Positions 1 to 17,777 of a stretch of 17,777 bases of DNA are shown here, piece after piece. The notes beneath the pieces are model-generated. The model was not told the DNA's origin and made no database searches. It saw only the letters and a program-made list of their open reading frames with translations. Source of the DNA: Anaerolineae bacterium (GTDB lineage: Bacteria > Chloroflexota > Anaerolineae > S140-20). Where the stretch lies: contig JALUTT010000016.1 in the NCBI GenBank assembly GCA_027021705.1, positions 1-17,777 of the forward strand, in the 5' to 3' direction. Both the position numbers and the translations under genes were made by a program. The first letter of the stretch is position 1. The number at the start of each line of letters is the position of its first letter.

Positions 1-2
1 CC

Positions 3-1148: not shown

Positions 1149-1163
1149 CGGGGGGACCTGGCT

Positions 1164-1258
1164 GGTGACTGCCCACGAGTCTCGCCGGCGGTCGGCCGCA
1201 TAGGGGCAATCTGACAAATTGCCTGCACCTTCCTGCCCCCAGGGTATGGGTAATCACC
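1164..1258. mobile_element. MITE-like small element with terminal inverted repeats (copy 1)
   Basis: Left end GGTGACTGCCCA (1164-1175) and right end TGGGTAATCACC (1247-1258) are 10/12 inverted. The right end TATGGGTAATCACC is the exact reverse complement of 8774-8787. Confidence 0.5.
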
Positions 1259-1334
1259 AAGGTTCCGAGGCTTGAGAGGGCAAGCGGGGATGTCCGGCAG
1301 GGGCATCCCCGCCCGCCTGTCCGTTGGACACGAT

Positions 1335-3356: not shown

Positions 3357-5404
3357 GGGCGATGACGAAGCGCCGAGAATGGACTGCCCTGTTGCTCCTC
3401 TTCCTCCTGGCGGCCGGGCTCCGCTGGTGGGCCCCGTTGGCCGTCCCTCCCGGCCTGGAGATGGACGAGCTGATCGAGGCCCAGATCGCGGAGCAGGTGC
3501 TCCAGGGGGATTGGCGGCCCTTCTACGAGGCCGGTCAGGGGCGGGAAGGGCTCTACCACTACTGGCTGGCCGGCTGGCTGGCGATCCTGGGCCGGCGTCT
3601 CTTCACGCTGCGGGTCGCCTCCTCGATGCTGAGCCTGCTGGGGCTGGCCGCCGGCTACATCCTGACCCGCCGCCTCTTCGGCCCGGCGGTGGCGCTGGTC
3701 GCCCTGGCGGGCGGGGCAGCCTCCTTCTGGACCCTCTTCGCCGCCCGCTCCGGGCTGCGCTCCACCAGCCTCCCCCCGTTGGCCGCGCTGGCCGGCTACT
3801 TCTTCTGGCGGGGGCTCGCCCCTCGCGCCGTCCGCAGGGCCGGGGGGCGCTCCCGGCTGCTCCTGGCCGCTGCCGGCCTCTTCCTGGGCCTCACCTTTTA
3901 CGCCTACACGGCGGCCCGGGTGCTGCCGGCCGTCTTCCTCCTCTTCGCCCTCTACCTGGGGGCCTTCCACCGGGATTGGCTGGCCGGGCGGATGCAGGCG
4001 TTGTTCCTGGGGGGGCTCGTCGCCCTGCTGGTGATGCTCCCCCTGCTGCGCTACCTGCAAACCCATCCCGAGGCCGACCAGTTCGACTTCCTCGACTTCA
4101 ACCGCCCGCTGGCGGCGCTGGAGCAGGGCAATCCGGAGCCGGCGCTGCGGACCACGCTGGCGACCCTGGGGATGTTCACCTTCCGGGGGGATCCCCTCAT
4201 CTTCGACAACGTGCCCGGCCGGCCCGTCTTCGACCCCCTCAACGGCCTGCTCTTCCTGGCCGGCGTGGGGATCGCCCTGGCCCGCCTCCGCCGTCCCGCC
4301 TATGCCTTCGCCCTCCTCTGGCTCCTCGTCAGCCTGGTGCCGGGGATGCTCAGCCAGCCGGCGCCCAACTTCTACCGGACCGTCGGCGCTCAGGTCGTCG
4401 CCTTCGCCTTCCCCGGCCTGGCTCTCGTGGAGGTCGTCCGCCGCTGGCGACGCCGCCGGTCAGGATGGGCAGGGCGGCCGGCCCTGGTCGGCGGGGCGGC
4501 CCTCCTGCTGGCGGTCCACCTGGTCGGCAACGGGCGGGCCTACTTCGCCACCTGGCCCCGGGTGGAAGGGATCCGCTTCTTCTGGCAGAGTGGGCTGGCC
4601 GAGGCGGCCCGCTATCTGGACCGCACGCCCGACGACGGCCCCGTCGTCCTCTGCACCGTCCTCACCTACGAGCACGATCCCTGGTGGCGGCCCGCCTGGC
4701 AGAGCATGCCCTACCTCCTCCGCCGCACCGACCTGGCGATCCGCTACCACGACTGCCGGACGGCGCTGGTGCTCCCGGCGGGCCGGCCCGTGCGCTACCT
4801 CTTCCCCGAGGCCCCCGACCCCGCCGCCCTGGTCTCCGACGGGCTCTGGGGGCCGGTGCTGACGGCCGCGACGCTGGTCCCCGGGGCCTTCCCCTCGGGC
4901 CAGGGGGCGCTGCTCCGGCTGGACGGACCGCTCCCGGCGGTGGGGCCGACCTCGGGGGCCGTCCGGTGGGCGCCCGAGGCGGGGGGCGGCCCGGCCTCGC
5001 TGCCGGTCGCCTTCGGCCAGAGCCTGCGCCTCCTGGGCTACCGGCGCGCCCCGGCCCACCCCCGCCCCGGCGACCGACTGCGCCTGGTCACCGCCTGGGA
5101 GGTGCAGGCACCGCCGCCGCCACGCCTGGCCCTCTTCACCCACCTCCTCGCCGACCCCCAGACGCTGGTGGCCCAGCAGGACGGCCTGCCGCTGACCTCT
5201 CACAGCCTGCGTCCGGGAGATCGGTTCCTGGTGCTCCACGATCAGGTCCAACTTCCGGCGGAACTGCCCGCCGGCACCTACCTCCTCTCCATCGGCCTCT
5301 ACCGGAGCGACACGATGGAGCGGCTGCCCCTCCACGAGGGGGCCCGGCCACGAGGCGACCGCCTCTTCCTGGAGCCCGTCGTCGTCACCGAGGAGTCGCG
5401 ATGA
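3353..5404 (+). CDS. GT-C fold membrane glycosyltransferase (ArnT/PMT, GT39/GT83-like) with C-terminal beta-sandwich domain
   Basis: ATG 3353 overlaps the upstream stop (ATGA). Motifs LRWW..VPPGLEMDE (DE acidic pair), GREGLYHY, LTRRLFG and GLTFYAYTAAR, with many TM segments. C-terminal FGQSLRLLGY..FTHLL..QQDG..GTYLLSIGLY domain. Confidence 0.85.
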   Translation: MRAMTKRREWTALLLLFLLAAGLRWWAPLAVPPGLEMDELIEAQIAEQVLQGDWRPFYEAGQGREGLYHYWLAGWLAILGRRLFTLRVASSMLSLLGLAAGYILTRRLFGPAVALVALAGGAASFWTLFAARSGLRSTSLPPLAALAGYFFWRGLAPRAVRRAGGRSRLLLAAAGLFLGLTFYAYTAARVLPAVFLLFALYLGAFHRDWLAGRMQALFLGGLVALLVMLPLLRYLQTHPEADQFDFLDFNRPLAALEQGNPEPALRTTLATLGMFTFRGDPLIFDNVPGRPVFDPLNGLLFLAGVGIALARLRRPAYAFALLWLLVSLVPGMLSQPAPNFYRTVGAQVVAFAFPGLALVEVVRRWRRRRSGWAGRPALVGGAALLLAVHLVGNGRAYFATWPRVEGIRFFWQSGLAEAARYLDRTPDDGPVVLCTVLTYEHDPWWRPAWQSMPYLLRRTDLAIRYHDCRTALVLPAGRPVRYLFPEAPDPAALVSDGLWGPVLTAATLVPGAFPSGQGALLRLDGPLPAVGPTSGAVRWAPEAGGGPASLPVAFGQSLRLLGYRRAPAHPRPGDRLRLVTAWEVQAPPPPRLALFTHLLADPQTLVAQQDGLPLTSHSLRPGDRFLVLHDQVQLPAELPAGTYLLSIGLYRSDTMERLPLHEGARPRGDRLFLEPVVVTEESR

Positions 5405-5438
5405 GTCGCTGAGTCGAAGGATCCCTGAGTTCTAAGCG

Positions 5439-7670
5439 ATGCCGATACGCCGTGATCTTCCCGAACGATCCATACCCTGGCCCATCGCCGGCATCCTGCT
5501 GGCCTTCGTCCTCCTGGCCGGCGCGGTCAGCGTGGTGAACCCCCTCTTCGAGTCCACCGACGAGATCCGCCACTACCGCTACATCCGCCGTCTGGTCGTC
5601 GAGCACCGGCTGCCCGTCCAGGGGGCCGAGCGGGTCCGCTCTCAGAGCCACCACCCGCCCCTCTACTACCTGCTCAGCGCCCTCGCCAGCGGTTGGGTGC
5701 CCTCGCCCCACACGCCCGAGTACCAGCAGCCCATCAACCCCTTCTGGGGCTACCGGCTCTGGGAGGTGAGCGTGGACAACAAGCTCCAGTACTGGCACGG
5801 CCTGGCGGAGCGGTTCCCCTTTCGGGAGGGCTACCTGGCGGCGGTGATCCCCCGCTGGGTCAACGTCCTGCTGGGGGCCGTGACGGTCTGGCTGACCTAC
5901 CGGCTGGGGCGGCGGGTGTGGCGGGAGCACCCCGCCCTGGCCTGGGGGGCGGCGGCCCTGGTCGCCTTCAACCCCCAGTTCCTCTACCTGAGCGGGGCGA
6001 TGAACAACGACATCATCGCGGCGGCCACGGGCACGGCGGTGTTGCTGGTGAGCCTGGAGGTGGCCCAGGAGGGGTTGCAGCGGGACCGGCTGCTCCGGCT
6101 GGGGCTGGCCTACGGGCTGGCGCTCCTGGCCAAGTTCCACCTGGTCACCCTAGGGGGCATCATCGCCCTGGCCCTCGCCCTGGGGGTGGTCGGGTGGTCC
6201 GGTGGTCCGGTGGTCCGGTGGTCGGGTGGCCGGGCGTTGGGGCGCTGGCTGGGAGGGATGGGGGTCGTGCTGGGGGTGGCCGCCCTCCTCGCCGGATGGT
6301 GGTTCCTGCGCAACTGGTGGCTCTACGGCGACCCCACCGGCCTCAACAAGGTCAACGAGCTCTGGTTGGGCCGCCCGGCCGGGGGCAACTGGTGGGCCCT
6401 CTGGCAGGGACTGCCCTACCTCTGGAGCAGCCTCTGGGGGCGCTTCGGCTACGGCCAGATCCCCCTGCCCCAGCCCATCTACAGCGGCCTGCTCGCCTTC
6501 GTCCTCCTGGCGCTGGGGGGATACCTACGCCCCCGCCGCGCCGAATCCCCAACGCCGATCCTGGCCCTGGGCCTGCTCCTGACCACCGTCCTCGCCTTCA
6601 CCGCCGTCGTCTTCTACTACATCCTGATCCAGCCGGCGGGGCCGATGGGGCGCTTTCTCTTCCCCGCCCTGCCCGCCTTCGCCGTGCTCCTGGTGGGGGG
6701 GCTGCACCGCTGGCTGCGGCGGCCGGTCTGGACCGCCGGAGGGGTGGCCGTGGGGATGGGGCTCCTAGCCCTGGTGGCCCTGGGGGGGTACCTGGCCCCG
6801 GCCGTCCGCTACCCGCCTCCGGCCCCCTCCCCGCCCCCCGGTCGCCCGCTGGAGGTCCGCTTCGGCGACGTGGCCCGGCTGCTCGCCGTCGAGGTCCACC
6901 CCACCACCCTCCGCCCCGGCGAGCCCCTCTTCGTCACCGTCACCTGGGAGCCGCTGCGCCGGACCGAGCGCCCCTACACCGTCTACGTCCACCTGATAGA
7001 CGAGGCCGACGTGCTCATCGCCCAGCGGGATACCTGGCCGGGGCTGGGTCGGGCCCCGACGACGGGCTGGCAGCCGGGCCGTCCCTTCGTGGACACCTAT
7101 CGGGTGGACCTCCCCGAGACGGCCTACGCGCCGGACCGGGCCGCCGTGCGGGTGGGGCTCTACGAGGCGACCTCGGGCCGGCTCCCCGCCTTCGGCTCCG
7201 ACGGGGAGCCCCTGGGGGACGGCGTGGCCGTGGGGACGGTGACGGTGGAGCCCCGCCCCGGCCCCTGGCCCAACCCCCTGGAGGCCAACTTCGGGGACGA
7301 GATCGCCCTGGTGGGTTACCGGCTGGAGCCGCGCACGCTGCGGGCCGGTGAGACCTTCACGCTGACCCTCTACTGGAGGCCGCTGAAGGAGCCTCGGTAC
7401 GACTACCTGGTCTTCGCCCAGGTGATTGACCCGGCCTGGCAGGTGTGGGGCAGCCGGGATGGGGCCGGGCCGGGCTGGACGCCGGGGCAGGTCGTCGAGG
7501 ATGTGCGTCGGATCACGCTGCGGCCCGATGCGCCGCCGGGCAGCTACCCCATCCAGGTGGGGCTCTTCCACGGTGAGACGGGCCGCCTCCCCGTCCTGGC
7601 CCCCGACGGCCACCACAAGGACGAGCGGGTGCTGTTGGGGCCGGTTCGGGTGAGGGGGGAGGGGGAGTGA
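5439..7670 (+). CDS. GT-C fold membrane glycosyltransferase-like protein (DUF2142/PMT-like) with two C-terminal beta-sandwich repeats
   Basis: Motifs PLFESTDEIRHYRY, HHPPLYY, FNPQFLYLSGAMNND, GLALLAK, WWFLRNWWLYGDPTG, SLWGRFG and GRFLFPA. Two C-terminal repeats start at FGDVARLL and FGDEIALVGY. Confidence 0.8.
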   Translation: MPIRRDLPERSIPWPIAGILLAFVLLAGAVSVVNPLFESTDEIRHYRYIRRLVVEHRLPVQGAERVRSQSHHPPLYYLLSALASGWVPSPHTPEYQQPINPFWGYRLWEVSVDNKLQYWHGLAERFPFREGYLAAVIPRWVNVLLGAVTVWLTYRLGRRVWREHPALAWGAAALVAFNPQFLYLSGAMNNDIIAAATGTAVLLVSLEVAQEGLQRDRLLRLGLAYGLALLAKFHLVTLGGIIALALALGVVGWSGGPVVRWSGGRALGRWLGGMGVVLGVAALLAGWWFLRNWWLYGDPTGLNKVNELWLGRPAGGNWWALWQGLPYLWSSLWGRFGYGQIPLPQPIYSGLLAFVLLALGGYLRPRRAESPTPILALGLLLTTVLAFTAVVFYYILIQPAGPMGRFLFPALPAFAVLLVGGLHRWLRRPVWTAGGVAVGMGLLALVALGGYLAPAVRYPPPAPSPPPGRPLEVRFGDVARLLAVEVHPTTLRPGEPLFVTVTWEPLRRTERPYTVYVHLIDEADVLIAQRDTWPGLGRAPTTGWQPGRPFVDTYRVDLPETAYAPDRAAVRVGLYEATSGRLPAFGSDGEPLGDGVAVGTVTVEPRPGPWPNPLEANFGDEIALVGYRLEPRTLRAGETFTLTLYWRPLKEPRYDYLVFAQVIDPAWQVWGSRDGAGPGWTPGQVVEDVRRITLRPDAPPGSYPIQVGLFHGETGRLPVLAPDGHHKDERVLLGPVRVRGEGE
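6185..6232 (+). repeat. Intragenic octamer tandem repeat (GGTGGYCS)x6
   Basis: ggtggtcg ggtggtcc ggtggtcc ggtggtcc ggtggtcg ggtggccg; 48 bp, which keeps the reading frame. Confidence 0.9.
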
Positions 7671-7690
7671 GGTGGTGAGGGGGTGAGGCA

Positions 7691-8698
7691 ATGAGGGGAC
7701 GGGGCGATGAGGCAACGAGGGGGGGAGGGGGCGCGAGGCGCGTCATCGGCCGGCTGGGCCGGCGCCGGGGGGCCATCTTCCGCCTGCTGGTCAGCCTGGG
7801 GGTGCTGACCTTCGTGCTGACGACCATCGGCCTGGAGCGGATCGGGCAGGTCCTGCTGACCGCCTCGCCCGGTCCCATCCTCCTGGCCTTCCTGCTCTTC
7901 GTCGCCGGCATCGTGGTGCGGGCGGCCCGCTGGCGGGTCCTGCTCCGCGCCCTGGGGGTCCACGTGCCCTTCGGACGGCTGGTCCACCTTTACTTCGCCG
8001 GCACCTTCTTCAACGCCTTCCTGCCCTCCGGCTTCGGCGGGGATGTCGTCCGTGTCCTGGAGATCGCCCAGGAAGCCCGCGCGGCGGCGGCCTTGGGCAC
8101 CGTGGTGGTGGACCGGATGACGGGGCTGATGGTCCTCTTCGCGATGGCCCTGCTGGCCCTCCCCTTCAGCCGTCGGTTGCTGCCCTGGGAGGTCTGGCTG
8201 GCCATCGGGGGGATGGCGGCGGCCGGGCTGGTCGCCGGTGGACTGGTCCTGCACGGGCGCTGGCTGCGCCGGCTGGGAGACCGGCTGCCCGGCCCCTTCT
8301 CCCTGACCGGCAGCGGGGCGCTGGCCCGGGCCTACGATGCCGTCACCGCCTGTGGCTGGCGGGCCGTGGGGCAGGCGCTGGCCCTCTCCCTCGTCTTCAA
8401 CACCCTCCTCATCCTGGTCAACTACCTGACCGCCCTGGCGGTGGGGATGCGTCTCAGCCTCGTCTACTTCCTGCTCTTCGTGCCCGTCTTCTCCGTGATG
8501 CTGATCCTCCCCGTCTCCATCGGCGGGCTAGGGGTGCGGGAGGGGATGGCGGTGCTCCTCTTCACCCAGGTGGGCGTGGACCGGGCGGTGGCCGTCGCCG
8601 CCTCCCTGGCCGTCTACGCCGTCTCCCGGGCGACGGGGCTCCTGGGCGGGCTGCTCTACTTGGTCCAGAGCCTCCGGGCCCTGCGCTCTCCCCGATAG
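7691..8698 (+). CDS. Lysylphosphatidylglycerol synthase TM-region / UPF0104 flippase-like membrane protein
   Basis: Motifs RAARWRVLL, GTFFNAFLPSGFGGDVVR, VVVDRMTGL and LPVSIGGLGVREG are typical of this family, with about 8 TM segments. The exact start is uncertain. Confidence 0.88.
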   Translation: MRGRGDEATRGGGGARRVIGRLGRRRGAIFRLLVSLGVLTFVLTTIGLERIGQVLLTASPGPILLAFLLFVAGIVVRAARWRVLLRALGVHVPFGRLVHLYFAGTFFNAFLPSGFGGDVVRVLEIAQEARAAAALGTVVVDRMTGLMVLFAMALLALPFSRRLLPWEVWLAIGGMAAAGLVAGGLVLHGRWLRRLGDRLPGPFSLTGSGALARAYDAVTACGWRAVGQALALSLVFNTLLILVNYLTALAVGMRLSLVYFLLFVPVFSVMLILPVSIGGLGVREGMAVLLFTQVGVDRAVAVAASLAVYAVSRATGLLGGLLYLVQSLRALRSPR

Positions 8699-8773
8699 TC
8701 CGCAGCAACGGGCAGATGGAAGACGCGATTCATACGCAAGCTGCGATAAAGGGGAGTCACCACGAGCCCCGCC

Positions 8774-8862
8774 GGTGATTACCCATATCTTTGGAGATTT
8801 TGTGAGAAATTCGTGGACGGCTTGCTACGGACCACTCTCTCGCTCCCTTGTGGGTAATCACC
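8774..8862. mobile_element. MITE-like 89-bp element with perfect 12-bp terminal inverted repeats and flanking direct repeat (copy 2)
   Basis: GGTGATTACCCA (8774-8785) pairs with TGGGTAATCACC (8851-8862). Flanks ACGAGCCCCGCC (8762-8773) and ACGAGCCCCGCT (8863-8874) match 11/12. The interior is more AT-rich than the flanking genes. Confidence 0.6.
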
Positions 8863-8920
8863 ACGAGCCCCGCTCTTGCGTCGGAGCCGGGATGATGTTA
8901 CAATTCTTGGCAGCGCCGGC

Positions 8921-9175
8921 CGCAGTCCGCAGTCCGCTGTTTGGTCGGGTGGTCGCTTGGTCGCTTGGTCCGCAGTCCGCGGTCCGCAGTCCACAGTCCT
9001 CAGTCCGCTGCTAGGCCGCTAGATCGCTAGGTCGCCAGGCCGCTTGATCGGCGGTCGGCGGTCAGCCGTCGGCGGTCGTTGATCGGCGGTCGTATCCGGC
9101 CTCGGTCCGCCGCTAGGTCGCTAGGCCGCCAGGCCGCTTGCCCTCTGCCCCTTGCTCCTTGCCCCTTGTCCCTTG
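8921..9175. repeat. Patchwork of short (7-8 nt) tandem repeats
   Basis: Consecutive blocks of (CGCAGTC)n, (TTGGTCGC)n, (CTAGGYCG)n, (GGCGGTC)n and (CCCCTTG)n. Confidence 0.85.
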
Positions 9176-9360
9176 CGGCGGGGGTGGTGGGGCTGGTGCC
9201 CTTCGTGCCGCTGATGCGAGGGGCGGACGAGGGGGTGATCCGGCGGGGGGTGGAGGTGCTGCGGGAGCGGGGGGTGGGGGAGGAGGTCGAGGCGGCGCTG
9301 GCCTTGTTTGCCAGCTTCGTGATGGAGCCGGAGCAAGTGCGGCAGATTGTGAGGTGGGAT

Positions 9361-9681
9361 ATGGCGGTTCTGAAGGAATCACCCTGGTACAAGCGAATCC
9401 TGGAGGAGGGCCTCCAGCAGGGCCTCCAACAGGGGCTTCAGCAGGGCCTCCAGCAAGGGCTCCGGCAGGGGCTGCTGGAGGGCCGGCGGGAGGACATTCT
9501 GCACCTGCTGCGGGTGCGGTTTGACCCGACGGGGCCGGCGCTGGAGCCCATCGCCGAGAAGCTGGCCGAGATCGAGGAGGCCGGCCTGCTCCAGGACCTG
9601 CTGGTGGAGGCGATGCGGACGGAGAGCCTGGATACCTTCCAGCGGAGGCTATCGCTGCTGTCAGAGAACTCCTCGGAGTAG
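9361..9681 (+). CDS. Putative RpnS-like small protein (106 aa) from an internal start
   Basis: Shine-Dalgarno-like GAGGTG at 9351-9356 lies before in-frame ATG 9361. The product contains the GLQQ repeats and a helical tail. Confidence 0.5.
   Translation: MAVLKESPWYKRILEEGLQQGLQQGLQQGLQQGLRQGLLEGRREDILHLLRVRFDPTGPALEPIAEKLAEIEEAGLLQDLLVEAMRTESLDTFQRRLSLLSENSSE
9409..9480 (+). repeat. 12-bp coding repeat encoding (GLQQ)x4-GLRQ-GLLE
   Basis: ggcctccagcag ggcctccaacag gggcttcagcag ggcctccagcaa gggctccggcag gggctgctggag. Confidence 0.9.
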
Positions 9682-9727
9682 TCTTCTTTCTTAAACCGAC
9701 CCATCGTGGCCGCATCGCCTTATCGCC

Positions 9728-12040
9728 TTGCCACCCTACACCTTCAACCGCGTGTCGCAGAAATTGAGGAAACACAGCCCCATCCCGGTCCTGCTGGCCC
9801 TTTTCGTCCTGCTCCCCTTCTGGGACCTGCTCTGGACACCTGAGACCCAGGTTGTGGCCGGCAACGACCTGCTCTTTATGTTCCTCCCCTGGTGGCGCTT
9901 CGCCCAGGAAAGCCTGCGCCAGGGGGAGCTTCCCCTGTGGAACCCCTACCTCTTCTCCGGGGTGCCTTTCCTGGCCAACCCCCAACCGGCCCTCTTCTAC
10001 CCGCCCGTCTGGCTCATCGGTCTCCTGCCGCTCACCCGGGCGGCGGGCTTGCTCTTCTTCCTGCACCTCTGGCTGGCCGGCCTGGGCACCTATGGCTGGC
10101 TTCGCGCCGAGGGCGCGGACCGATGGGGGAGCCTCTTCGGCGCGGTCGCCTTCGCCTTCAACGGCTACTTCGCCGTGCGCATCTACGGCGGCCACTTGGG
10201 CGTGGTGATGACCCAGGCCTGGCTCCCCGTCGTGCTCTGGGCCGCCCGCCGGGCCATCGAGGGGAGATCGCTGCGCCGGGCGGTGCTGGGTGGCCTCCCC
10301 GTCGCCCTCTCCCTGCTGGCCGGCCACACCGCCTCTTTCCTGTACGTGGGGCTGGTCCTGGCCGCCTACGCCCTCTACCTGGCCTGGCGGGCTTGGCGGC
10401 AGGCCCCGACCCCTGCCTCGGGCTGGGCCTCGCTCCGGACCGGCCTCCTCCCCCTGCTCCTGACCGGCACGATGGTCCTGACCGGCCTGGGCCTGGCGGC
10501 GGTCCAACTGCTCCCCACCTGGGAACTGGTCCGCCACTCCGTCCGCCAGGAGGCCTCCTACGCCTTCGCCGCCCAGTACGCCTGGCCGCCGGGCTACCTG
10601 CTGACGCTGCTCGTCCCCAACTTCTTCGGCGAGCCGGTTCGGGCCGGCTACTGGGGCGTGGAGATCTACACCGAGTTCATCTTCTACACCGGCCTGCTGC
10701 CCCTCCTGCTGGCCTTGGCCTTGGGGAGCCGGCTGCGCCACCGGTTGGTCCCCTTCCTGCTCCTGCTGGCGGGGGCCGGGCTGCTGCTGGCGATGGGGCC
10801 GGCCACCATCCTGCACCGCCTGGCTTACGACTTCCTGCCCCTCTTCCGCTCAACGCGGGCGCCGGCCCGGGCCGGCTTCCTCTTCGCCTTCGCCGTCGCT
10901 GCCCTGAGCGGGCTGGCCCTCACCCGGATGCGCCAGAGGCCCGACGAAGCCCGGTCGGCCCTTCGGGGATGGGTTCAGGGACCGCTGCCCTGGCTGGTCG
11001 GCACCCTGGCCACCCTCGTCGCCCTGACCGGGTTCCTCCTCTTCGGCCTGCAGCGGGACAGCAACGCGCAGGTGGGCCGGCTCTGGCACGTCGCCAACTA
11101 CGTGGCCCTCTTCCTGCTCTTCTTCCTCCTGGCGGTGGGGCTGGTACGGGCCTGGCTGGCGGGACGGGTGACGGGCCGGCAGGGGGCCACCCTCGCCATC
11201 GGCCTGGTCCTGCTGGACCTGTGGAGCTTCGGACGCCCCCTGATCCAGACCGTCCCGGCAACGGAGAGCGGCTACTGGCGCACCGTCGCCCAGGTGGTGG
11301 GCGAGGCCGGGAAGACAGGACGTGTGCTCCCTTGGGGGCTGACCATCTTCGAGCACAACCAGGGGATGGTTCTGGGGCTGGAGAGCGTCTTCGGCTACGA
11401 CCCGCTGGAACTGGAGCGGTACTACCGCTTCACCACCGCCGTCTCGGACCCCCGGGCGCGGGCCTACGACCTCTTGGGAGCCCGCTACCTGGTGACCGGC
11501 CAGGAGATGACCTTTCCCGACGAGGTGGATGCCCCTCGGCTGCTCGCCCACCGGGGGGATCTCTGGGTCTACGAGCGCCCGACCGCCTTCCCGCCGGCCT
11601 GGCTGGTCCACCGGGCGGAGGTGCTGAGCGCCGAGGAGGTGCTGGCGCGGCTCAACGACCCGGCCTTCGACCCCCGGCAGGTGGCCCTGCTGGAGGCCGA
11701 TCCCCCCTGCACGCCGACCGGTGCCGAGGGGCCGGCCCCGGAGGGGGAAGCGGTGCGCTTCTCCCGGCAGGGGAACAATCGCCTCGAGGTTGAGGTCGAG
11801 GCGGCCTCGGAGGGCCTACTGGTGCTGGGCGAGGTCTTTTACCCCGGCTGGCGGGCGACGGTGGATGGGAAGCCAGCCCCCGTCCTGCGGGCCGACTACG
11901 CCCTGCGGGCCGTCTGTGTGCCGGCCGGAACCCACCGGATCACCCTCACCTTTGCCCCCCTCTCCTTCCGCCTCGGTGCCGGGATCAGCCTGCTCTCCCT
12001 CCTGCTCCTCGTCGTCGCGCTGTTCTGGGGGAGGCGGTGA
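9728..12040 (+). CDS. YfhO-family membrane protein (GT-C type glycosyltransferase)
   Basis: N-terminal GELPLWNPYLFSGVPFLANPQPALFYP, then GGHL, LLAGH, GLAAVQLLP and FRSTRAPAR. C-terminal GLLVLGEVFYPGWRATVDG..VLRADYALRAVCVPAGTHRI plus a terminal TM helix. The start may be GTG 9752 or TTG 9764. Confidence 0.85.
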   Translation: MPPYTFNRVSQKLRKHSPIPVLLALFVLLPFWDLLWTPETQVVAGNDLLFMFLPWWRFAQESLRQGELPLWNPYLFSGVPFLANPQPALFYPPVWLIGLLPLTRAAGLLFFLHLWLAGLGTYGWLRAEGADRWGSLFGAVAFAFNGYFAVRIYGGHLGVVMTQAWLPVVLWAARRAIEGRSLRRAVLGGLPVALSLLAGHTASFLYVGLVLAAYALYLAWRAWRQAPTPASGWASLRTGLLPLLLTGTMVLTGLGLAAVQLLPTWELVRHSVRQEASYAFAAQYAWPPGYLLTLLVPNFFGEPVRAGYWGVEIYTEFIFYTGLLPLLLALALGSRLRHRLVPFLLLLAGAGLLLAMGPATILHRLAYDFLPLFRSTRAPARAGFLFAFAVAALSGLALTRMRQRPDEARSALRGWVQGPLPWLVGTLATLVALTGFLLFGLQRDSNAQVGRLWHVANYVALFLLFFLLAVGLVRAWLAGRVTGRQGATLAIGLVLLDLWSFGRPLIQTVPATESGYWRTVAQVVGEAGKTGRVLPWGLTIFEHNQGMVLGLESVFGYDPLELERYYRFTTAVSDPRARAYDLLGARYLVTGQEMTFPDEVDAPRLLAHRGDLWVYERPTAFPPAWLVHRAEVLSAEEVLARLNDPAFDPRQVALLEADPPCTPTGAEGPAPEGEAVRFSRQGNNRLEVEVEAASEGLLVLGEVFYPGWRATVDGKPAPVLRADYALRAVCVPAGTHRITLTFAPLSFRLGAGISLLSLLLLVVALFWGRR

Positions 12041-12043
12041 GGT

Positions 12044-12163
12044 GCCGAGGGCCAAGGCACCGAGGACTGAGGACCAAGGACCAAGGACTACCTGACCACG
12101 GGACCACCCGGCCAAGGGACCACCCGACCAAGGGACCACGTGACCATCCGACCATCCGACCAC
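12044..12163. repeat. Intergenic heptamer (ACCAAGG-like) and octamer (NNGACCAH)x9 tandem repeats
   Basis: Heptamers at 12044-12090. Octamers at 12092-12163: ctgaccac gggaccac ccggccaa gggaccac ccgaccaa gggaccac gtgaccat ccgaccat ccgaccac. Confidence 0.88.
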
Positions 12164-12177
12164 AGCGTCAACCCTAG

Positions 12178-12206
12178 TTGTCCGTTTGATGAGGACGTGG
12201 TATAAT
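12178..12206 (+). promoter_or_regulatory. sigma70-type promoter of the toxin-antitoxin operon
   Basis: TTGTCC (12178-12183), 17-bp spacer, TATAAT (12201-12206), with an extended -10 TG at 12198-12199. Confidence 0.75.
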
Positions 12207-12277
12207 GGGGTGTTGCGGGGGCGTCCGATTGGTATGCACATAATGTTCTCCCTTGAGTGTCGCAAGGAGGTGCTGTA

Positions 12278-12544
12278 ATGAGGGATACGACCCGGGTCAC
12301 GGTGGTGCTTCCCGTCGCGCTCTGGGAAGAGGTGAAGGAAATGGTCCCTGCCGGCCAGCGCTCCCGGCTGGTCGCCGAGGCCCTGGAGGCGGAAATCCGC
12401 CGGCGGAAGCGTCTGGAGCAACTGGAGCGTCTACGGCGGTTCCAGGACTACCTCCTAGAAAAGTATGGGGAGATGCCCAGCAGCGTGGAGGATATCCGTC
12501 AGATGCGGGAGGAACGCGATGCCGAGATCACTGGTCTGCGTTGA
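12278..12544 (+). CDS. vapB: Ribbon-helix-helix type antitoxin (VapB-like)
   Basis: RBS AAGGAGG at 12264-12270 before ATG 12278. TRVTVVLP..LWEEVKEMVPAGQRSRLVAEAL fits an RHH pattern, the tail IRQMREERD is typical, and the gene overlaps the downstream PIN gene. Confidence 0.75.
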   Translation: MRDTTRVTVVLPVALWEEVKEMVPAGQRSRLVAEALEAEIRRRKRLEQLERLRRFQDYLLEKYGEMPSSVEDIRQMREERDAEITGLR

Positions 12545-12965
12545 TGCTAACATCGTCGTTGCCCTGGTCACGGTCGAACGGCTTAGCCGCCGAGCGCTCT
12601 CCCTCTGGCAGGAATGGTCCCAGGGAACCTGGCAGCCGATCGCACCGCTCCTCCTACGCTACGAAGTGACTTCTGCTCTACACCGCAAAGTCGTGCGGGG
12701 GATGATGGACGCGCAAGATGCCTATCAGGCGTTGCAAGAAGCGTTCGCTCTGGACATCCAGTATTTCGACCCGCCGGGGCTCTCGGAGCGGGCCTTCGAG
12801 CTGGCCGCCCGTTTCCAGCGGCCGGCCGCTTACGACGCCCACTACCTGGCCCTGGCCGAGCACCTGGACTGTGCCTTCTGGACGGCCGACGAGCGCCTCT
12901 ACAACGCCGTCCGCGCCGAGTTCCCCCTCATCCGCTGGTTGGGGGACTACCAACCCGATGACTGA
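12519..12965 (+). CDS. vapC: PIN-domain ribonuclease toxin (VapC-like)
   Basis: VCVDANIVV, YEVTSAL, AYDAHYLALAE and FWTADERL supply the conserved acidic PIN residues. ATG 12519 follows a GGAGGA RBS and overlaps the antitoxin gene. Confidence 0.9.
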   Translation: MPRSLVCVDANIVVALVTVERLSRRALSLWQEWSQGTWQPIAPLLLRYEVTSALHRKVVRGMMDAQDAYQALQEAFALDIQYFDPPGLSERAFELAARFQRPAAYDAHYLALAEHLDCAFWTADERLYNAVRAEFPLIRWLGDYQPDD

Positions 12966-12989
12966 GGAGCCTCTTTTCGTCCTCTTCTC

Positions 12990-13018
12990 TTGTCTATTCC
13001 CCCAACCTGGGGTACAAT
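12990..13018 (+). promoter_or_regulatory. sigma70-type promoter for the downstream operon/leader RNA
   Basis: TTGTCT (12990-12995), 17-bp spacer, TACAAT (13013-13018). Confidence 0.6.
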
Positions 13019-13028
13019 TCTTCGGGAT

Positions 13029-13057
13029 TCAGACCTCCGAGGTCTGACGGAGGTCTG
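13029..13057. repeat. Palindrome with an alternative hairpin (REP-like)
   Basis: TCAGACCTC-C-GAGGTCTGA is a perfect palindrome (13029-13047). CAGACCTCCG (13030-13039) can alternatively pair with CGGAGGTCTG (13048-13057). Confidence 0.75.
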
Positions 13058-13077
13058 CTGCAACAGGGTTTAGGTAC

Positions 13078-13193
13078 GCCCTTGGTGTCCAGACGCTCTC
13101 GCTGGATCGCCGATCCGGTGGAGCGGGCCGATCCCAGACCCGCCCGGAGCGGCAAAGGGCTCTCCGGGGTTTCCGGCCGTCGGGAAGCCTCGG
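13078..13193 (+). ncRNA. Candidate structured RNA in a long 5' leader (family unassigned)
   Basis: Closing stems GCCCTT/AAGGGC, TGTC/GGCA and GCTCT/GGAGC enclose two hairpins (13100-13120, 13123-13143), followed by an 11-bp hairpin at 13164-13193. Folded by eye only. Confidence 0.3.
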
Positions 13194-13248
13194 TGGGCTA
13201 CCGAAAGGCCGACCCTCTGGGGGCGGGCCGAATGAGGAGAAGGAGATC

Positions 13249-13572
13249 GTGTGGGAAGGAAGGGACGATAAGCGGGTCAAGCTGCTGATGCAATGGGACA
13301 TCCGTCCCGGCTATGAGGCTGCTTACTTCGAGTTCGTCGTGCGGGAGTTCGCCCCAGGGCTGATGCGGCTGGGACTGCAGCCGACGGACGTCTGGTACAC
13401 GGTCTACGGGGACCATCCCCAGATTCTGGCCGGCAGCATCGCCGAGGACCTGCCGACGATGCGGCGCATCCTGCAGAGCCCGGAGTGGGAGGCCCTGCTG
13501 GAGCGGCTCTTCCAATACGTGCAGAACTTCCAGAAGAAGATCGTCCCCGCCCGCGAGCGATTCCAGCTTTAA
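13249..13572 (+). CDS. Small hypothetical protein (possible NIPSNAP/dimeric alpha-beta barrel-like fold)
   Basis: Purine-rich RBS region GAGGAGAAGGAG just upstream and GC3-rich codons. VKLLMQWDIRPGYEAAYFEFVVREFAPGL looks like a real globular protein; the fold is an inference. Confidence 0.7.
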   Translation: MWEGRDDKRVKLLMQWDIRPGYEAAYFEFVVREFAPGLMRLGLQPTDVWYTVYGDHPQILAGSIAEDLPTMRRILQSPEWEALLERLFQYVQNFQKKIVPARERFQL

Positions 13573-13615
13573 CCTCGAGAGGATGGCTCGACGAGCCGAC
13601 GAAAGGAGTGAGAAT

Positions 13616-14983
13616 TTGCGCAAGTGGATCTGGCTTGGTATAGGATTGCTGGCAGCCCTGCTGCTGGCCGCATGCACCGGTGCCGGGACGGCGGAGAAGG
13701 CCACCGCTCCACCGGCCACCGAAGTTGCCGCTTCACCGACGGAAGGCACCCTTCCCTCCCCTACGCCGACCGAGGTCGCTGTCACACCGACCGAAGCCGC
13801 TGCCGAGGCCACACCGGCTGAGCCTCCTGTCTCGGCCGCAGACCTCCCGCTGGGCACAGGTCAGGATGCCTGTCGCCTCTTCCAGGGTGTCCAAGTGCCC
13901 CCTGCCTCCACGGAACCCCCGCCCTGGCAGATCCCCGAAGTGAGCGAGGAGGACTGGGTCCGGGGGGCCAAAGACCCGATCCTGACCATCGTCGAGTACG
14001 GCGATTTCCAGTGACCGTACTGCGCCTCTTTGGCACCAACTCTGGATGAGTTGGTTCAGAAACACGGTGACGAAATCCAGTTGGTCTACCGCCACTTCCC
14101 CCTCAACTCCATCCACGATAAGGCCCAGATCGCTGCCGAAGCTACCGAAGCCGCCGGTGCGCAGGGGGCTTTCTGGGAGATGCATGATCTCATCTTCGCC
14201 AACCAGCAAATGATGAACCAGCAGGACTTGGAGACCTACCGGGAAACGCTGGTGGGCTTTGCCGAGCAGCTAGGGCTGGACGTGGATCGCTTCCGCAAAG
14301 AGCTGGTGGACGGAACCTACAAGGACAAGGTGGAACAGGCGACCCAGGCGGCGATGGAATTGGGCCTGGGTGGTACTCCCGCCATCTTCATCAACGGGCA
14401 GTTCTGGCAGGGTCCCCGTGACCTCTACATCTTCGAGGCGATCCTGGAACTGGAGAAGCTGCGCAGCCGCCAGTACGCCGAAGCGCCCCCGGTGAAGATT
14501 GACCCCGAGAAGCAGTACGTGGCGACCTTCTACACCGATAAGGGGGAGATCGTCGCCCAGCTCTACGCCAAGCAGGCCCCCATCGCCGTCAACAGCTTCA
14601 TCTTCCTGGCCTGCCAGGGCTGGTTCGATGGCGTCACCTTCCACCGGGTGCTCCCCGGCTTCGTCGCCCAGACGGGCGACCCCACCGGGACCGGCTTCGG
14701 TGGTCCGGGCTACCGCTTTGGGAACGAGATAGACCCCCAGCTCACCTTCGATGGGCCGGGGGTCCTGGCGATGGCCAACGCCGGCCGTCCCAACACCAAC
14801 GGCAGTCAGTTCTTCTTCACCTACGACGCCCTGCCCGATCTGAACGGCAACTACACCATCTTCGGGCGGGTGATCCAGGGGATGGATGTGCTGGAGTCGC
14901 TGACGCCCCGAGATCCCCAGCAGGACCCCTCGGCCCCGCCAGGGGACCGGATCCAGTCCATCACGGTGGAGGAGTTGGAGTAG
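13616..14983 (+). CDS. Selenocysteine-containing DsbA-like (thioredoxin-fold, UxxC) / cyclophilin-type PPIase fusion lipoprotein, 455 aa, Sec at residue 133
   Basis: ORFs 13583..14014 and 14030..14983 share one frame and are separated only by TGA 14012-14014, giving IVEYGDFQ-U-PYCASLAP. The neighbouring paralog aligns as LIEYADFQ-C-LAC. A SECIS-like hairpin follows. AAGGAG (13603-13608) favours a TTG 13616 start, with signal peptide and lipobox LAAC. The DsbA part has YRHFPL and GGTPAIFING; the cyclophilin part has FHRVLPGFVAQTGD, AMANAG..TNGSQFF and YTIFG. Confidence 0.85.
14029..14060 (+). promoter_or_regulatory. Bacterial SECIS-like hairpin
   Basis: Perfect 8-bp stem ACCAACTC (14035-14042) / GAGTTGGT (14048-14055) with a 5-nt loop TGGAT. 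The loop has G at position 2 and starts 28 nt after the UGA. The stem extends by TTTGG/TCAGA with one bulged C. Confidence 0.75.
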
Positions 14984-14987
14984 CTCG

Positions 14988-16280
14988 GTGGGGCGGAGAG
15001 GTGCCCGGACGGGCCTGCTCATCCTGGTCCTGATCCTGGTCACAGGCTGGCTCCTCTGGCAGTGGTCTGTCCGGGCAAGCTTTCCCGCCCCATCGTTGCC
15101 TTCACCCTCGCCGACGCCGACGCTGCGTTCCAGCGCGACGCCCGTTCCCTCACCGACCCCTACCGCCAGTCCCGTCGCGCCCGTTGCGCTGCAGGACCCC
15201 CCTCCTCCCTCCCCGACACCTACGCCCACCCCAGGCCCTCCCCCCCTCTCCTCGTCCGACTGGGTGCGGGGGCCGGAGGAGGCAAAGGTCACGCTGATCG
15301 AGTACGCCGACTTCCAGTGCCTGGCCTGCGCGACGCTGGCCGGCTGGCTGACGCGCCTGTCCGATGAAGTGCCGGGGGGCGTGCGCTTGGTCTACCGCCA
15401 CTATCCCCTCCCTAAGCTCCACGACCGGGCCGTGGTAGCTGCTGAGGTCGCCGAAGCAGCGGGTGCCCAAGGCCGCTTCTGGGCGATGCACGACCTCCTA
15501 TACTGGCGTCAGGACGAGTGGACAAAGGTGCCCGAAGAGAACCTGCTCGACCTGTGGGTCGGTTACGCCCGGGAGCTGGGTCTGGACACGGACCGCTTCC
15601 GACGGGATCTGGAGAGCCGGCGCTATCGGCGTCGCGTCCTGGATGCCTACCAGGCTGCCGCGTCCATCCCCATGGCCGGCGTCCCCACCCTCTTCATCAA
15701 CGGCGTGCGCTATCGGGGGCCCCTGAACCGACAATCGCTGTCGGCGATGCTCCAGGTCGCCGCCCAGCGCCCTCTCTACCCCGCCCCTCCACCGATGACA
15801 CTGGACCTGACCCACACCTACACGGCCACGCTGGTCACCCGCCACGGCGAGATCGTCATCCGGCTGCACCCGGAGTGGGCCCCCCAGGCGGTGAACAGCT
15901 TCGTCTTCCTGGCCCGTCAAGGCTGGTACGATGGCCTCCCCTTCCACACCGTCCTGCCGGGCCGGCTGGCGGTCACCGGGGACCCCAGTGGGACCGGGTT
16001 GGGAGGGCCGGGATACTACCTGCCCGACGAGATCATCGCTGCACTGCGCTTCAACCGACCTGGGCGGGTCGCCCTGGCCAACGAGGGTTGGCCCAACACC
16101 GGCGGCAGTCAGTTCTTCATCACCGCGCAACCGGCTCCTGAGTTGGATGGCCGCTACACCATCTTCGGTCAGGTCGTGTCGGGCCTGGAGGTGCTGGATG
16201 CCCTCACCCCCAGCCGACCAGGCCCTGAGGGAGTCAGAGATGCGGATCTCCTGGAACGGGTTATCATCGAGGAGCGATAA
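14988..16280 (+). CDS. Membrane-anchored DsbA-like (CxxC) / cyclophilin-like fusion, Cys paralog of the upstream selenoprotein
   Basis: N-terminal TM helix, Pro/Thr/Ser linker, DWVRGP..IEYADFQCLAC, YRHYPL and GVPTLFING, then a cyclophilin-like domain (AVNSFVFLARQGWYDG, NTGGSQFF, YTIFG). It starts 4 nt after the upstream stop. Confidence 0.88.
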   Translation: MGRRGARTGLLILVLILVTGWLLWQWSVRASFPAPSLPSPSPTPTLRSSATPVPSPTPTASPVAPVALQDPPPPSPTPTPTPGPPPLSSSDWVRGPEEAKVTLIEYADFQCLACATLAGWLTRLSDEVPGGVRLVYRHYPLPKLHDRAVVAAEVAEAAGAQGRFWAMHDLLYWRQDEWTKVPEENLLDLWVGYARELGLDTDRFRRDLESRRYRRRVLDAYQAAASIPMAGVPTLFINGVRYRGPLNRQSLSAMLQVAAQRPLYPAPPPMTLDLTHTYTATLVTRHGEIVIRLHPEWAPQAVNSFVFLARQGWYDGLPFHTVLPGRLAVTGDPSGTGLGGPGYYLPDEIIAALRFNRPGRVALANEGWPNTGGSQFFITAQPAPELDGRYTIFGQVVSGLEVLDALTPSRPGPEGVRDADLLERVIIEER

Positions 16281-16284
16281 GCCT

Positions 16285-17604
16285 ATGGACACCTCCCCGC
16301 CGACGCTTCCCCAAGGGCAACCTGTCGAAGGCATAGGGGGGCAGCCGGTCTCCTCCCCACCTCCGCCCTCCCAGGCGCGCCAAGCCGGACTGGTCCTGCT
16401 GGTCCTCAGCGGATGTGGCGTGATGCTCTGCTTGGTTGGAACGGGGCTTCTGGTCCTCTTCGTGGGCCTGGCGGAGGGTGCCGGGGAGGCGGATTCCTGG
16501 TTCATCGCCGTGGGCCTCCTGGCTCTGGGGCTGGGCCTGGCCCTGCCCCTCACCTGGCAGGGCGGTGCGGCGCTGCTGAGACGCCCCTCGGCTCCTTTCA
16601 CTCCCCGACGCGCCTGGCCTTTGGCCCTCCTCTTCTTCGTCGCCTTGGCGGGCGGTCAGCTTGTGCTGATCCTGAAGTTGATGCCCGGGGTGGTGATGCC
16701 CTTCTTCCACCTCATCGCGACGGTAGTCCCGCCACTGCTCGTCGTCGCGCTGGTAGCCCGCCACCTGCACCGCAGGGCCGGCTTGCGCTTCAGCCGACGG
16801 GAGGTGATCTTCCACCTGGCAGCCGGAGCGCTGGGGGCCACCTTTCCCGCCCTGATCCTGGAGGGGATCGGTGCCCTCTTCCTGGTCCTCTTCCTCGCTG
16901 TGGGCATCCTCGTCCTGCCGGGCGGCGAAGCTTACCTGGAGGCCCTCCGACAACAGTTGGAGATGGTCGGCCAGTTACCCGACGCTGACCGGGCAATGGC
17001 TCTGCTCCGGCGGCCGGAAGCCATCCTCTTCCTGTTGCTCCTCTTCGCCGTCATCACCCCTCTGGTCGAGGAGTTCCTCAAGCCCTGGGCGGCTGTGCTC
17101 TTGAGCGGCCGCCGCCGTCCGCCTCCAGGACGGGTCTTCTTCTGGGGGGTTGTCGCGGGAGCAGGCTTCGCCATCGCCGAGGGCTTCTTCAACGTCGCCC
17201 TCTCCGTGGGGGTCTGGACGGCCACGGCCCTGCTGCGGGCGGTGACGGCCACGCTCCACAGCTTGGGGACGGGGGTGGTCGCGCTGGGGTGGGGCCGTTT
17301 CTGGACCGAGCGGCGAGCCGGTCCGCTGCTGGGAGGCTACCTGCTGGCCTTGGTCCTCCACGCCCTCTGGAACGGGGCCATCGTGGGGCTGCAGGTGGTC
17401 GGAGCCTTCCTGGCCTGGTCGGAAGGCGGTCAGGGGGCGGAGGCGCCGACCCCCTACCTGCCCGCGCTGATCCTCCTGGCAGTGCTGGCGATGAGCCTGT
17501 TGGGGATGCTGCTGGTGGCGGTGCCGGGCCTCTTAGCTGCCGTCACCCGGCGGGTGGCCGTCCAGGAGGCCTCCCGAGAGGCCGGCTCCTTGACCGACGG
17601 CTGA
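16285..17604 (+). CDS. PrsW-family intramembrane glutamic/metalloprotease
   Basis: Multi-TM protein with PLVEEFLK, GAGFAIAEG, ATLHS and LHALWN motifs. ATG 16285 lies 4 nt after the upstream stop with GAGGAG before it; the longer 15931 start is spurious. Confidence 0.85.
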   Translation: MDTSPPTLPQGQPVEGIGGQPVSSPPPPSQARQAGLVLLVLSGCGVMLCLVGTGLLVLFVGLAEGAGEADSWFIAVGLLALGLGLALPLTWQGGAALLRRPSAPFTPRRAWPLALLFFVALAGGQLVLILKLMPGVVMPFFHLIATVVPPLLVVALVARHLHRRAGLRFSRREVIFHLAAGALGATFPALILEGIGALFLVLFLAVGILVLPGGEAYLEALRQQLEMVGQLPDADRAMALLRRPEAILFLLLLFAVITPLVEEFLKPWAAVLLSGRRRPPPGRVFFWGVVAGAGFAIAEGFFNVALSVGVWTATALLRAVTATLHSLGTGVVALGWGRFWTERRAGPLLGGYLLALVLHALWNGAIVGLQVVGAFLAWSEGGQGAEAPTPYLPALILLAVLAMSLLGMLLVAVPGLLAAVTRRVAVQEASREAGSLTDG

Positions 17605-17635
17605 CTGCCGACCGCCGGCCTAGCGGCCTGGCGAC
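17594..17635. repeat. 42-bp repeat, inverted copy of 9031-9072
   Basis: 38/42 identity to the reverse complement of 9031-9072 by manual alignment. Confidence 0.8.
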
Positions 17636-17777
17636 TTAACGACTGGCGGCTTAGTACAGCTTTGCACAAGTTCGTTCCTAGTAAGGATGGGTAAGCGAAC
17701 CGGTGAGAGGCAGGCTCAGTGCAAACCGGCCACGCTTCCGACCTGCCTCAAGCGTCCACGGAAGGCACGATGGGAGC

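Follow-up and report, generated by a model that had tools for sequence, protein, structure and literature searches.

We investigated a 17,777-nucleotide stretch of DNA from an Anaerolineae bacterium (contig JALUTT010000016.1, positions 1 to 17,777), hereafter called the window, and in it a forward-strand gene whose reading frame is broken by one TGA at 14012-14014. An earlier note on this DNA had proposed that the gene encodes a selenocysteine (Sec, U) protein, in which a DsbA-like domain with a UxxC motif is fused to a cyclophilin and preceded by a lipoprotein signal. Our sequence comparisons support this proposal. The UGA is very probably a genuine Sec codon in one gene for a 455-residue selenoprotein. 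Three findings favour the proposal as a whole: the stop recurs at the exact codon in relatives, a hairpin of the Sec insertion sequence (SECIS) type follows it, and the lipobox cysteine (Cys) is conserved.

Recurrence of the in-frame stop among relatives

From TTG 13616 to TAG 14983 the sequence forms one frame, interrupted solely by the TGA. It appears as two mechanical open reading frames (ORFs) on the + strand, 13583/13616..14014 and 14030..14983, which share that frame. The earlier note had spoken of two annotated ORFs; here they stand as two mechanical ORFs. The TTG start is favoured because a GGAG sits 7 nt before it (Table 1), and from there the TGA lies 396 nt, or 132 codons, downstream (14012-13616). 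With the TGA read as U, the product has 455 aa (466 aa from ATG 13583), and U is residue 133 in the motif EYGDFQ-U-PYC (context ...LTIVEYGDFQ-U-PYCASLAP...), consistent with the single interrupted frame, start, length and U133 that had been claimed. The other 454 codons contain no further defect, and both domains have strong scores. In the window, whose DNA is 69% G+C, TGA terminates 5 of the 10 ORFs checked; therefore UGA is an ordinary stop in this host and is not reassigned genome-wide, and 14012-14014 would be the only TGA recoded in the window.

A homolog search with the window protein gave 5687 proteins at E <= 0.001 among 8000 candidates scored. Of the 120 best homologs, 103 had CxxC (mostly CPYC) with its first Cys at the U position, which was an invariant column in a 53-sequence alignment, in agreement with the earlier placement of the TGA at the attacking Cys. 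Twelve of the other 17 were proteins of 620-664 aa with cyclophilin Pfam domains only, and two were fusion homologs that retain one active-site Cys each, P0087 (SFEC) and P0093 (CPGS). One more, P0003, is the C-terminal ORF (99% identical) and starts directly past the motif. The last two, P0004 and P0117 (NCBI-derived), also start directly past the motif and carry two cyclophilin-like regions each; they are probably further Sec forms that gene callers shortened.

When the N-terminal 132-residue piece was searched alone, six proteins were found, with identities of 96, 84, 74, 37, 40 and 40%. All six were lipoprotein-like, and all six ended exactly at ...EY[GS]DFQ. The three closest, P0123 (96%), P0124 (84%) and P0125 (74%), end at DFQ, each on a contig other than that of the window. 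The position of the stop at one codon in sequences so diverged disfavours a sequencing error or a recent nonsense mutation. The expectation that standard pipelines would split the gene was also borne out, with the database ORFs P0003 and P0123 as its two parts.

At the DNA level, we scanned 185,579 species genomes for the pattern E-Y-x-D-[FY]-[QE]-TGA-P-x-C and obtained at least 120 loci, where by our own estimate, assuming equal base frequencies, about 4 chance matches were expected. In all 120 loci listed, the translation is DsbA-like before and after the TGA, so that homologs with TGA at residue 133, which the earlier note had suggested looking for, exist beside those with Cys. According to their record titles, the loci listed are mostly from Chloroflexota (Anaerolineae, Dehalococcoidia and Chloroflexia), together with Rubrobacteraceae, Acidobacteriota, Myxococcales and Phycisphaerae. 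Full flanks were fetched for 80 of the at least 120 loci. The same DsbA-cyclophilin fusion was found in 41 of these 80, with at least 295 codons past the UGA and alignment through the cyclophilin domain, at E <= 2e-83 and 35-57% identity to the window protein; the remaining 39 were single-domain or other forms. Sec-form DsbA-cyclophilin fusions are thus predicted in at least 41 species genomes. In a separate observation, the read-through ORFs of three loci (L002, L020 and L053) end at a second TGA after ...EFSDFQ, and P-x-C and another DsbA-like domain come next. Probably, these loci encode tandem DsbA-like proteins with two Sec residues.

The flanks of the TGA look intact, as had been stated, with one Pfam match running across it and a cyclophilin domain beyond. 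In the numbering from ATG 13583, which applies throughout this and the next paragraph, the single DSBA/Thioredoxin_4 match covers residues 122-289, and PF01323 and PF13462 scored 78.0 and 73.3 bits against gathering cut-offs of 25.6 and 23.2. The Pro_isomerase match covers residues 315-461, where PF00160 reached 138.5 bits against a cut-off of 21.7 over profile positions 3-158 of 159. The cyclophilin segments FHRV...Q...GSQFF align with solved cyclophilins, and the best solved matches are cyclophilins. The C-terminal domain is by its sequence of the cyclophilin type, and prolyl isomerase catalysis is predicted for it. A lipobox has the motif [LVI][ASTVI][GAS]C and is preceded by basic residues and a hydrophobic stretch; the N-terminus of the protein, MRKWIWLGIGLLAALL-LAAC, displays the basic residues, the hydrophobic stretch and the lipobox. 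The lipobox Cys (C31) is conserved in at least 90% of the 53 homologs, and the alignment of the window protein with the '(seleno)lipoprotein' profile NF041057 begins at profile position 3.

An AlphaFold model of the read-through protein, built with the 53-homolog alignment, had a mean predicted local distance difference test score (pLDDT) of 87 and consisted of a signal helix, a disordered Pro/Thr-rich linker (pLDDT <50 at residues 39-78), the DsbA domain and a cyclophilin barrel. In the DsbA domain (pLDDT 94-99), U144 lies between a strand (134-140) and a helix (145-161). The break thus separates strand 1 from helix 1 within a single thioredoxin fold, so that neither half would be a complete domain. 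A G-T-P loop, which we take to be the cis-Pro loop, is conserved in the 53-sequence alignment. Among solved structures, the DsbA part is matched best by the actinobacterial 'DsbA' proteins 4pwo_A (1.3e-18) and 7unn (~1e-18), whose CPFC motif has its first Cys opposite U in the alignment. In the structure comparison, no solved structure spanned both domains, the best query template modelling score (TM-score) being 0.31.

The hairpin after the UGA and competing explanations

A candidate bacterial SECIS (bSECIS) hairpin lies within the coding sequence (Table 1), with its loop beginning 28 nt past the UGA. Folded alone, it had a free energy of -11.1 kcal/mol (z = -4.38), and none of 200 shuffles was as stable. 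A perfect stem of at least 8 bp arose in only 9 of 5000 synonymous recodings (P = 0.0018) and in about 0.9% of the other 60-nt windows of the contig. The bSECIS model, as given in the available text of a review (PMC13188914), has a loop of 3-9 nt, a stem of 4-16 bp, a G in the first two loop positions, a distance of 16-37 nt after the UGA and a minimum free energy (MFE) of -7.5 kcal/mol or lower. The window hairpin falls within every one of these constraints (UGGAU, 8 bp, 28 nt, -11.1 kcal/mol).

We then compared the loci of the TGA scan. The MFE of 60 nt discriminates poorly in G+C-rich DNA (median z of the loci = -1.05) and was replaced by counts of perfect Watson-Crick stems; in 119 loci the sequence was long enough for the 60 nt past the UGA to be scored. 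Stems of at least 6 bp were present in 86/119 Sec loci, compared with 6.9% of synonymous recodings (n=5950) and 9.8% of other windows of the same genes (n=3149); for stems of at least 7 bp, the values were 60/119, 1.4% (n=5950) and 2.8% (n=3149). Two hairpin types covaried. Type 1 (40 sequences) pairs nt 20-26 with nt 33-39 around the loop CGUGUU and has changes on both sides in 7/7 pairs. Type 2 (26 sequences) pairs nt 34-41 with nt 45-52 around the loop GGU and has double changes in 5/8 pairs. The cells paired amounted to 96.8% for type 1 and 93.8% for type 2, percentages that are inflated because the sets were picked by eye on the hairpin register; the compensatory changes are the informative part of this result. 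For both types, 0/500 shuffles reached the observed scores, and sliding the partner columns collapsed the pairing. As a Cys-form control, a six-frame motif search of the at least 120 loci listed and of the window found no second Cys-form copy in those loci and returned only the paralog next to the window's own gene; past the TGC of this paralog, no perfect stem in the same place exceeds 3 bp. The hairpin speaks for Sec, but the weight of the case rests on the comparative evidence.

Besides the inflated pairing percentages, several results weigh against Sec. The specificity of the bSECIS model is low: 17.3% of 4053 ordinary codons of window genes pass it, 4.4% of them all with an energy no higher than -11.1 kcal/mol. 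The MFE of the 60 nt after the UGA is unremarkable, with z = -0.81 against synonymous recoding (22/100 nulls as stable) and z = -1.96 when dinucleotides are shuffled; elsewhere in the gene, 30 of 80 windows match or exceed its stability. Scanned in full against Rfam at E <= 10, the window gave no SECIS and no other credible RNA family. The covariance model R1, built on the type-2 hairpin of 26 relatives, missed 14035-14055 even with filters off and gave five weak matches in the window, all at E >= 1; judged by this search, the window hairpin is not a sequence homolog of the type-2 hairpin. The covariation comes from clades other than the window's own, and for the closest relatives, P0123-P0125, known as protein sequences, the evidence covers the place of the stop and not its codon. 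The window's own genome is not among the at least 120 loci listed in the TGA scan. Moreover, the 17.8-kb window contains no tRNA gene of any kind and neither a recognisable sel gene nor tRNA-Sec; in the flanks of the 80 loci there was no confirmed tRNA-Sec, and none at all in L001-L060. One candidate was considered and set aside: ARAGORN called a tRNA-SeC of 95 nt with anticodon tca in L071 (14270-14364, - strand), 3.3 kb from the Sec fusion. It had no Rfam match at gathering score or E <= 1 and overlaps the 3' end of a response-regulator ORF. This unconfirmed call is probably a false positive and lends no support to Sec machinery, so it too is counted on the opposing side.

Three other explanations were weighed on the same evidence. 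The gene could be a pseudogene, in which a nonsense mutation turned TGC or TGT into TGA in one duplicate while the intact Cys paralog kept the function. A single base change suffices to turn a Cys codon into TGA, an intact Cys paralog lies directly downstream, and no Sec machinery is visible in the window. However, the stop occupies the same codon in 6/6 fragment relatives (to 37% identity) and in 120/120 loci listed, no second defect has accumulated in the other 454 codons while both domains score strongly, a discrete hairpin follows the UGA, and an identity of only 47% to the paralog marks the duplication as old. We therefore regard a pseudogene as very unlikely. The break could also be a sequencing or assembly error, or mark two separate genes, one for a lipoprotein of 132 aa and the other for a thioredoxin-less cyclophilin protein of 317 aa, as the listing of the halves as separate ORFs by database gene callers (P0123, P0003) might suggest. 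The same break in P0123, P0124 and P0125 on other contigs, and its location between strand 1 and helix 1, where neither half holds a complete domain, make this explanation extremely improbable.

A further explanation accepts the read-through product and denies it Sec: the UGA would be read by near-cognate Cys/Trp decoding or by a low-level leak in a host that has lost the Sec system or never had it. It is compatible with the data in that no Sec machinery is visible in the 17.8-kb window, the covarying hairpins of other clades share no homology with the window hairpin, and DNA of 69% G+C easily satisfies the bSECIS model. Yet the family shows the standard selenoprotein signature: homologs have Cys opposite its UGA, and compensatory changes preserve a structured element that is correctly spaced and has a G in its apical loop. 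Moreover, the tree described below contains at least 15 Sec/Cys switches, and UxxC DsbA/DsbG-like selenoproteins are established families. Readthrough without Sec is accordingly unlikely, and Sec at residue 133 is the reading we adopt in what follows.

Gene features, tandem paralog and neighbourhood

Table 1. Features of the read-through gene and of the two genes that follow it in the window
Feature	Position	Strand	Details
Shine-Dalgarno-like GGAG	13605..13608	+	7 nt 5' of TTG 13616; read from sequence
Whole read-through gene	13616..14983	+	455 codons, proposed Sec = codon 133, stop TAG 14981-14983
Predicted lipoprotein signal peptide MRKWIWLGIGLLAALLLAAC, lipobox L-A-A-C	13616..13675	+	Cys codon 13673-13675; from sequence
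Pro/Thr/Ala/Glu-rich linker, lipid anchor to catalytic domains	13676..13945	+	translation; pLDDT
DsbA-like thioredoxin-fold domain, spans TGA	13946..14449	+	PF13462/PF01323, E = 3.4e-20 and 1.1e-21
In-frame TGA, proposed Sec codon	14012..14014	+	residue 133, motif U-P-Y-C
Candidate bacterial SECIS hairpin ACCAACUC-UGGAU-GAGUUGGU	14035..14055	+	8 Watson-Crick pairs, 5-nt loop
Cyclophilin-type peptidyl-prolyl isomerase domain	14525..14965	+	PF00160, E = 3.1e-40
Tandem Cys paralog, same two domains	14988..16280	+	motif C-L-A-C (TGC 15318-15320)
PrsW-family intramembrane metalloprotease gene	16336..17604	+	PF13367, E = 4.1e-10; start codon uncertain

The Sec gene is followed by a paralog that reads EYADFQ-C-LAC, with the TGC that the earlier note had pointed out, and that has an N-terminal hydrophobic anchor in place of the lipobox. 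Over 341 aa it shares 47% identity with the Sec gene, and its best match outside its own 90% cluster is 54% identical. We constructed a FastTree tree from the 42 Sec fusions of the TGA scan and the 96 Cys fusions that best matched the window, a biased sampling. The results showed that Sec and Cys forms are interleaved, with at least 15 Sec/Cys changes, of which at least 9 are forced by well-supported branches; the window protein forms its own long branch inside a group that mixes 24 Sec rows with 20 Cys rows. Sec has been described as evolving repeatedly from redox-active Cys in the available text of PMC1794560, and our tree agrees.

A gene of the PrsW family lies beyond the paralog in the window. 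Among the 41 fusion loci, 35 had a testable downstream ORF, and in 17 of these 35 Pfam placed the PrsW family directly downstream of the Sec fusion. The adjoining loci are L001, L005, L013, L015, L025, L030, L041, L043, L044, L046, L047, L050, L056, L060, L071, L078 and L080. A tblastn search with the PrsW-like protein of the window gave no matches in the fetched loci. PrsW and the Sec fusion may form a conserved module for folding and quality control in the envelope.

Upstream in the window, three consecutive large membrane-protein ORFs (1272-7670, 7691-8698 and 9728-12040, +) have weak matches to PMT_2-type glycosyltransferases, and only the third (9728-12040) is above the Pfam cut-off. They are followed by an LPG_synthase_TM protein (E = 5.9e-42) and a YfhO-family protein, and these upstream ORFs look like an envelope glycosylation and lipid-modification cluster placed before the foldase genes. 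A PIN-domain protein is also encoded at 12465-12965 (+; PF01850, E = 3.3e-8). The small ORF 5' of it at 12257-12544 (+) has a very weak ribbon-helix-helix match (E = 0.07), and the two may be a VapBC-like toxin-antitoxin pair.

Predicted function and relation to known selenoproteins

We propose that the lipoprotein signal (LAAC) would export the protein and anchor it at the outer face of the membrane, where a flexible Pro/Thr-rich linker would carry the DsbA-like domain with Sec133-Pro-Tyr-Cys136 and, after it, the cyclophilin domain. The UGA would be recoded as Sec by SelB and Sec-tRNA, with the hairpin at 14035-14055 in the coding sequence as the putative guide. Sec would stand in for the attacking (N-terminal) Cys and, in the course of thiol-disulfide exchange with secreted client proteins, would be joined to Cys136 in a selenenylsulfide. 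The cyclophilin domain would act on these clients as a prolyl isomerase, so that the whole would be an extracytoplasmic foldase with two activities. The most likely function is thus that of a membrane-tethered foldase outside the cytoplasm that combines thiol-disulfide exchange with prolyl isomerisation. Sec insertion, export and lipidation, the redox direction (oxidase or isomerase) and the cooperation of the two domains are all inferred here.

A broader proposition may be put forward, with the caveat that it is rather doubtful that all of its parts hold jointly. Sec-form DsbA-cyclophilin lipoproteins would be a widespread Chloroflexota subfamily, extracytoplasmic, missed by current annotation and marked by many Sec/Cys switches; the subfamily would often be coupled to a PrsW-family membrane protease; and the Sec/Cys pair of the window would provide a selenium-dependent form and a selenium-independent backup for protein folding in the envelope. 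Methanogens have Sec/Cys isoenzyme pairs, to which the pair in the window can be likened.

In public protein sets, the gene and its relatives are either cut into two pieces or shortened at the N-terminus (P0003, P0123, P0004, P0117), and the nearest curated selenoprotein model misses them at its cut-off. Selenoprotein counts for Chloroflexota are therefore likely too low, and those for Rubrobacteria and Acidobacteriota are probably too low likewise. If the proposal is true, selenium chemistry has a part in the extracytoplasmic oxidative folding of proteins in a large environmental phylum, and a natural Sec/Cys pair lies side by side, open to comparison. Our understanding of Sec recoding and of DsbA chemistry is unchanged, and the practical value lies in annotation.

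The kind of selenoprotein is not new. UxxC 'DsbA-like' selenoproteins were reported from Sargasso Sea data (PMC1088965), a later survey counted DsbA-like selenoproteins in 41 organisms (PMC5029168), and a table in a 2026 review (PMC13188914) gives 'DsbA-like protein form 1, PF01323, UxxC' and 'DsbG-like protein, NF041057, UxxC', grading the DsbG-like UxxC family as 'predicted with high confidence'. According to the available text of these sources, the UxxC DsbA-like and DsbG-like selenoproteins have been catalogued since 2004-2005 (PMC13188914, PMC1088965). With this catalogue, with NF041057 in existence and with at least 41 genomes holding a predicted Sec fusion, the novelty claimed by the earlier note was overstated. 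For the Sec-form DsbA-cyclophilin fusion itself, our literature searches found no description, although supplementary lists of the cited surveys might already name some; the word 'cyclophilin' occurs 0 times in the available text of PMC13188914 and PMC1088965.

The nearest curated family is NF041057, the NCBIfam 'Rcas_1661 family thioredoxin-like (seleno)lipoprotein', which may have Sec or Cys. It shares with the window protein the lipoprotein nature, the Thioredoxin_4/DsbA-type fold, UxxC/CxxC in the same place and occurrence in Chloroflexota, and profile positions 3-245 of 247 align. However, the window protein scored 102.6 bits against a cut-off of 190, which makes it a relative and not a member, and its additional cyclophilin domain at the C-terminus has no counterpart in the 247-position model. 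The result was similar for 12 sampled of the 80 read-through loci, all of which fell under the cut-off (84.6-163.6 bits). Form 1 of the DsbA-like selenoproteins likewise has PF01323, UxxC and a predicted SECIS directly after the UGA, but the available descriptions present it as single-domain (COG2761) and mention neither a cyclophilin fusion nor a lipoprotein anchor.

Among solved proteins, the DsbA part resembles the actinobacterial DsbA/MdbA type (4pwo, 7unn) and BdbD (3eu3), with E = 1.3e-18 to 1.3e-8 and the active-site motif aligned. These proteins are presumably membrane-tethered outside the cytoplasm; in contrast to the window protein, they have Cys in place of Sec and no cyclophilin domain. 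The closest likeness in architecture is to the Cys-form DsbA-cyclophilin fusions of Anaerolineae and other Chloroflexota, which have the same domain order, length, lipobox and linker at 45-59% identity, and differ in having CPxC where the window protein has UPYC. This Cys form is very common in these groups, and JGI names it 'cyclophilin family peptidyl-prolyl cis-trans isomerase/protein-disulfide isomerase'. The Sec-form fusion thus joins a known UxxC kind of selenoprotein to a domain fusion that is ordinary in the Cys form.

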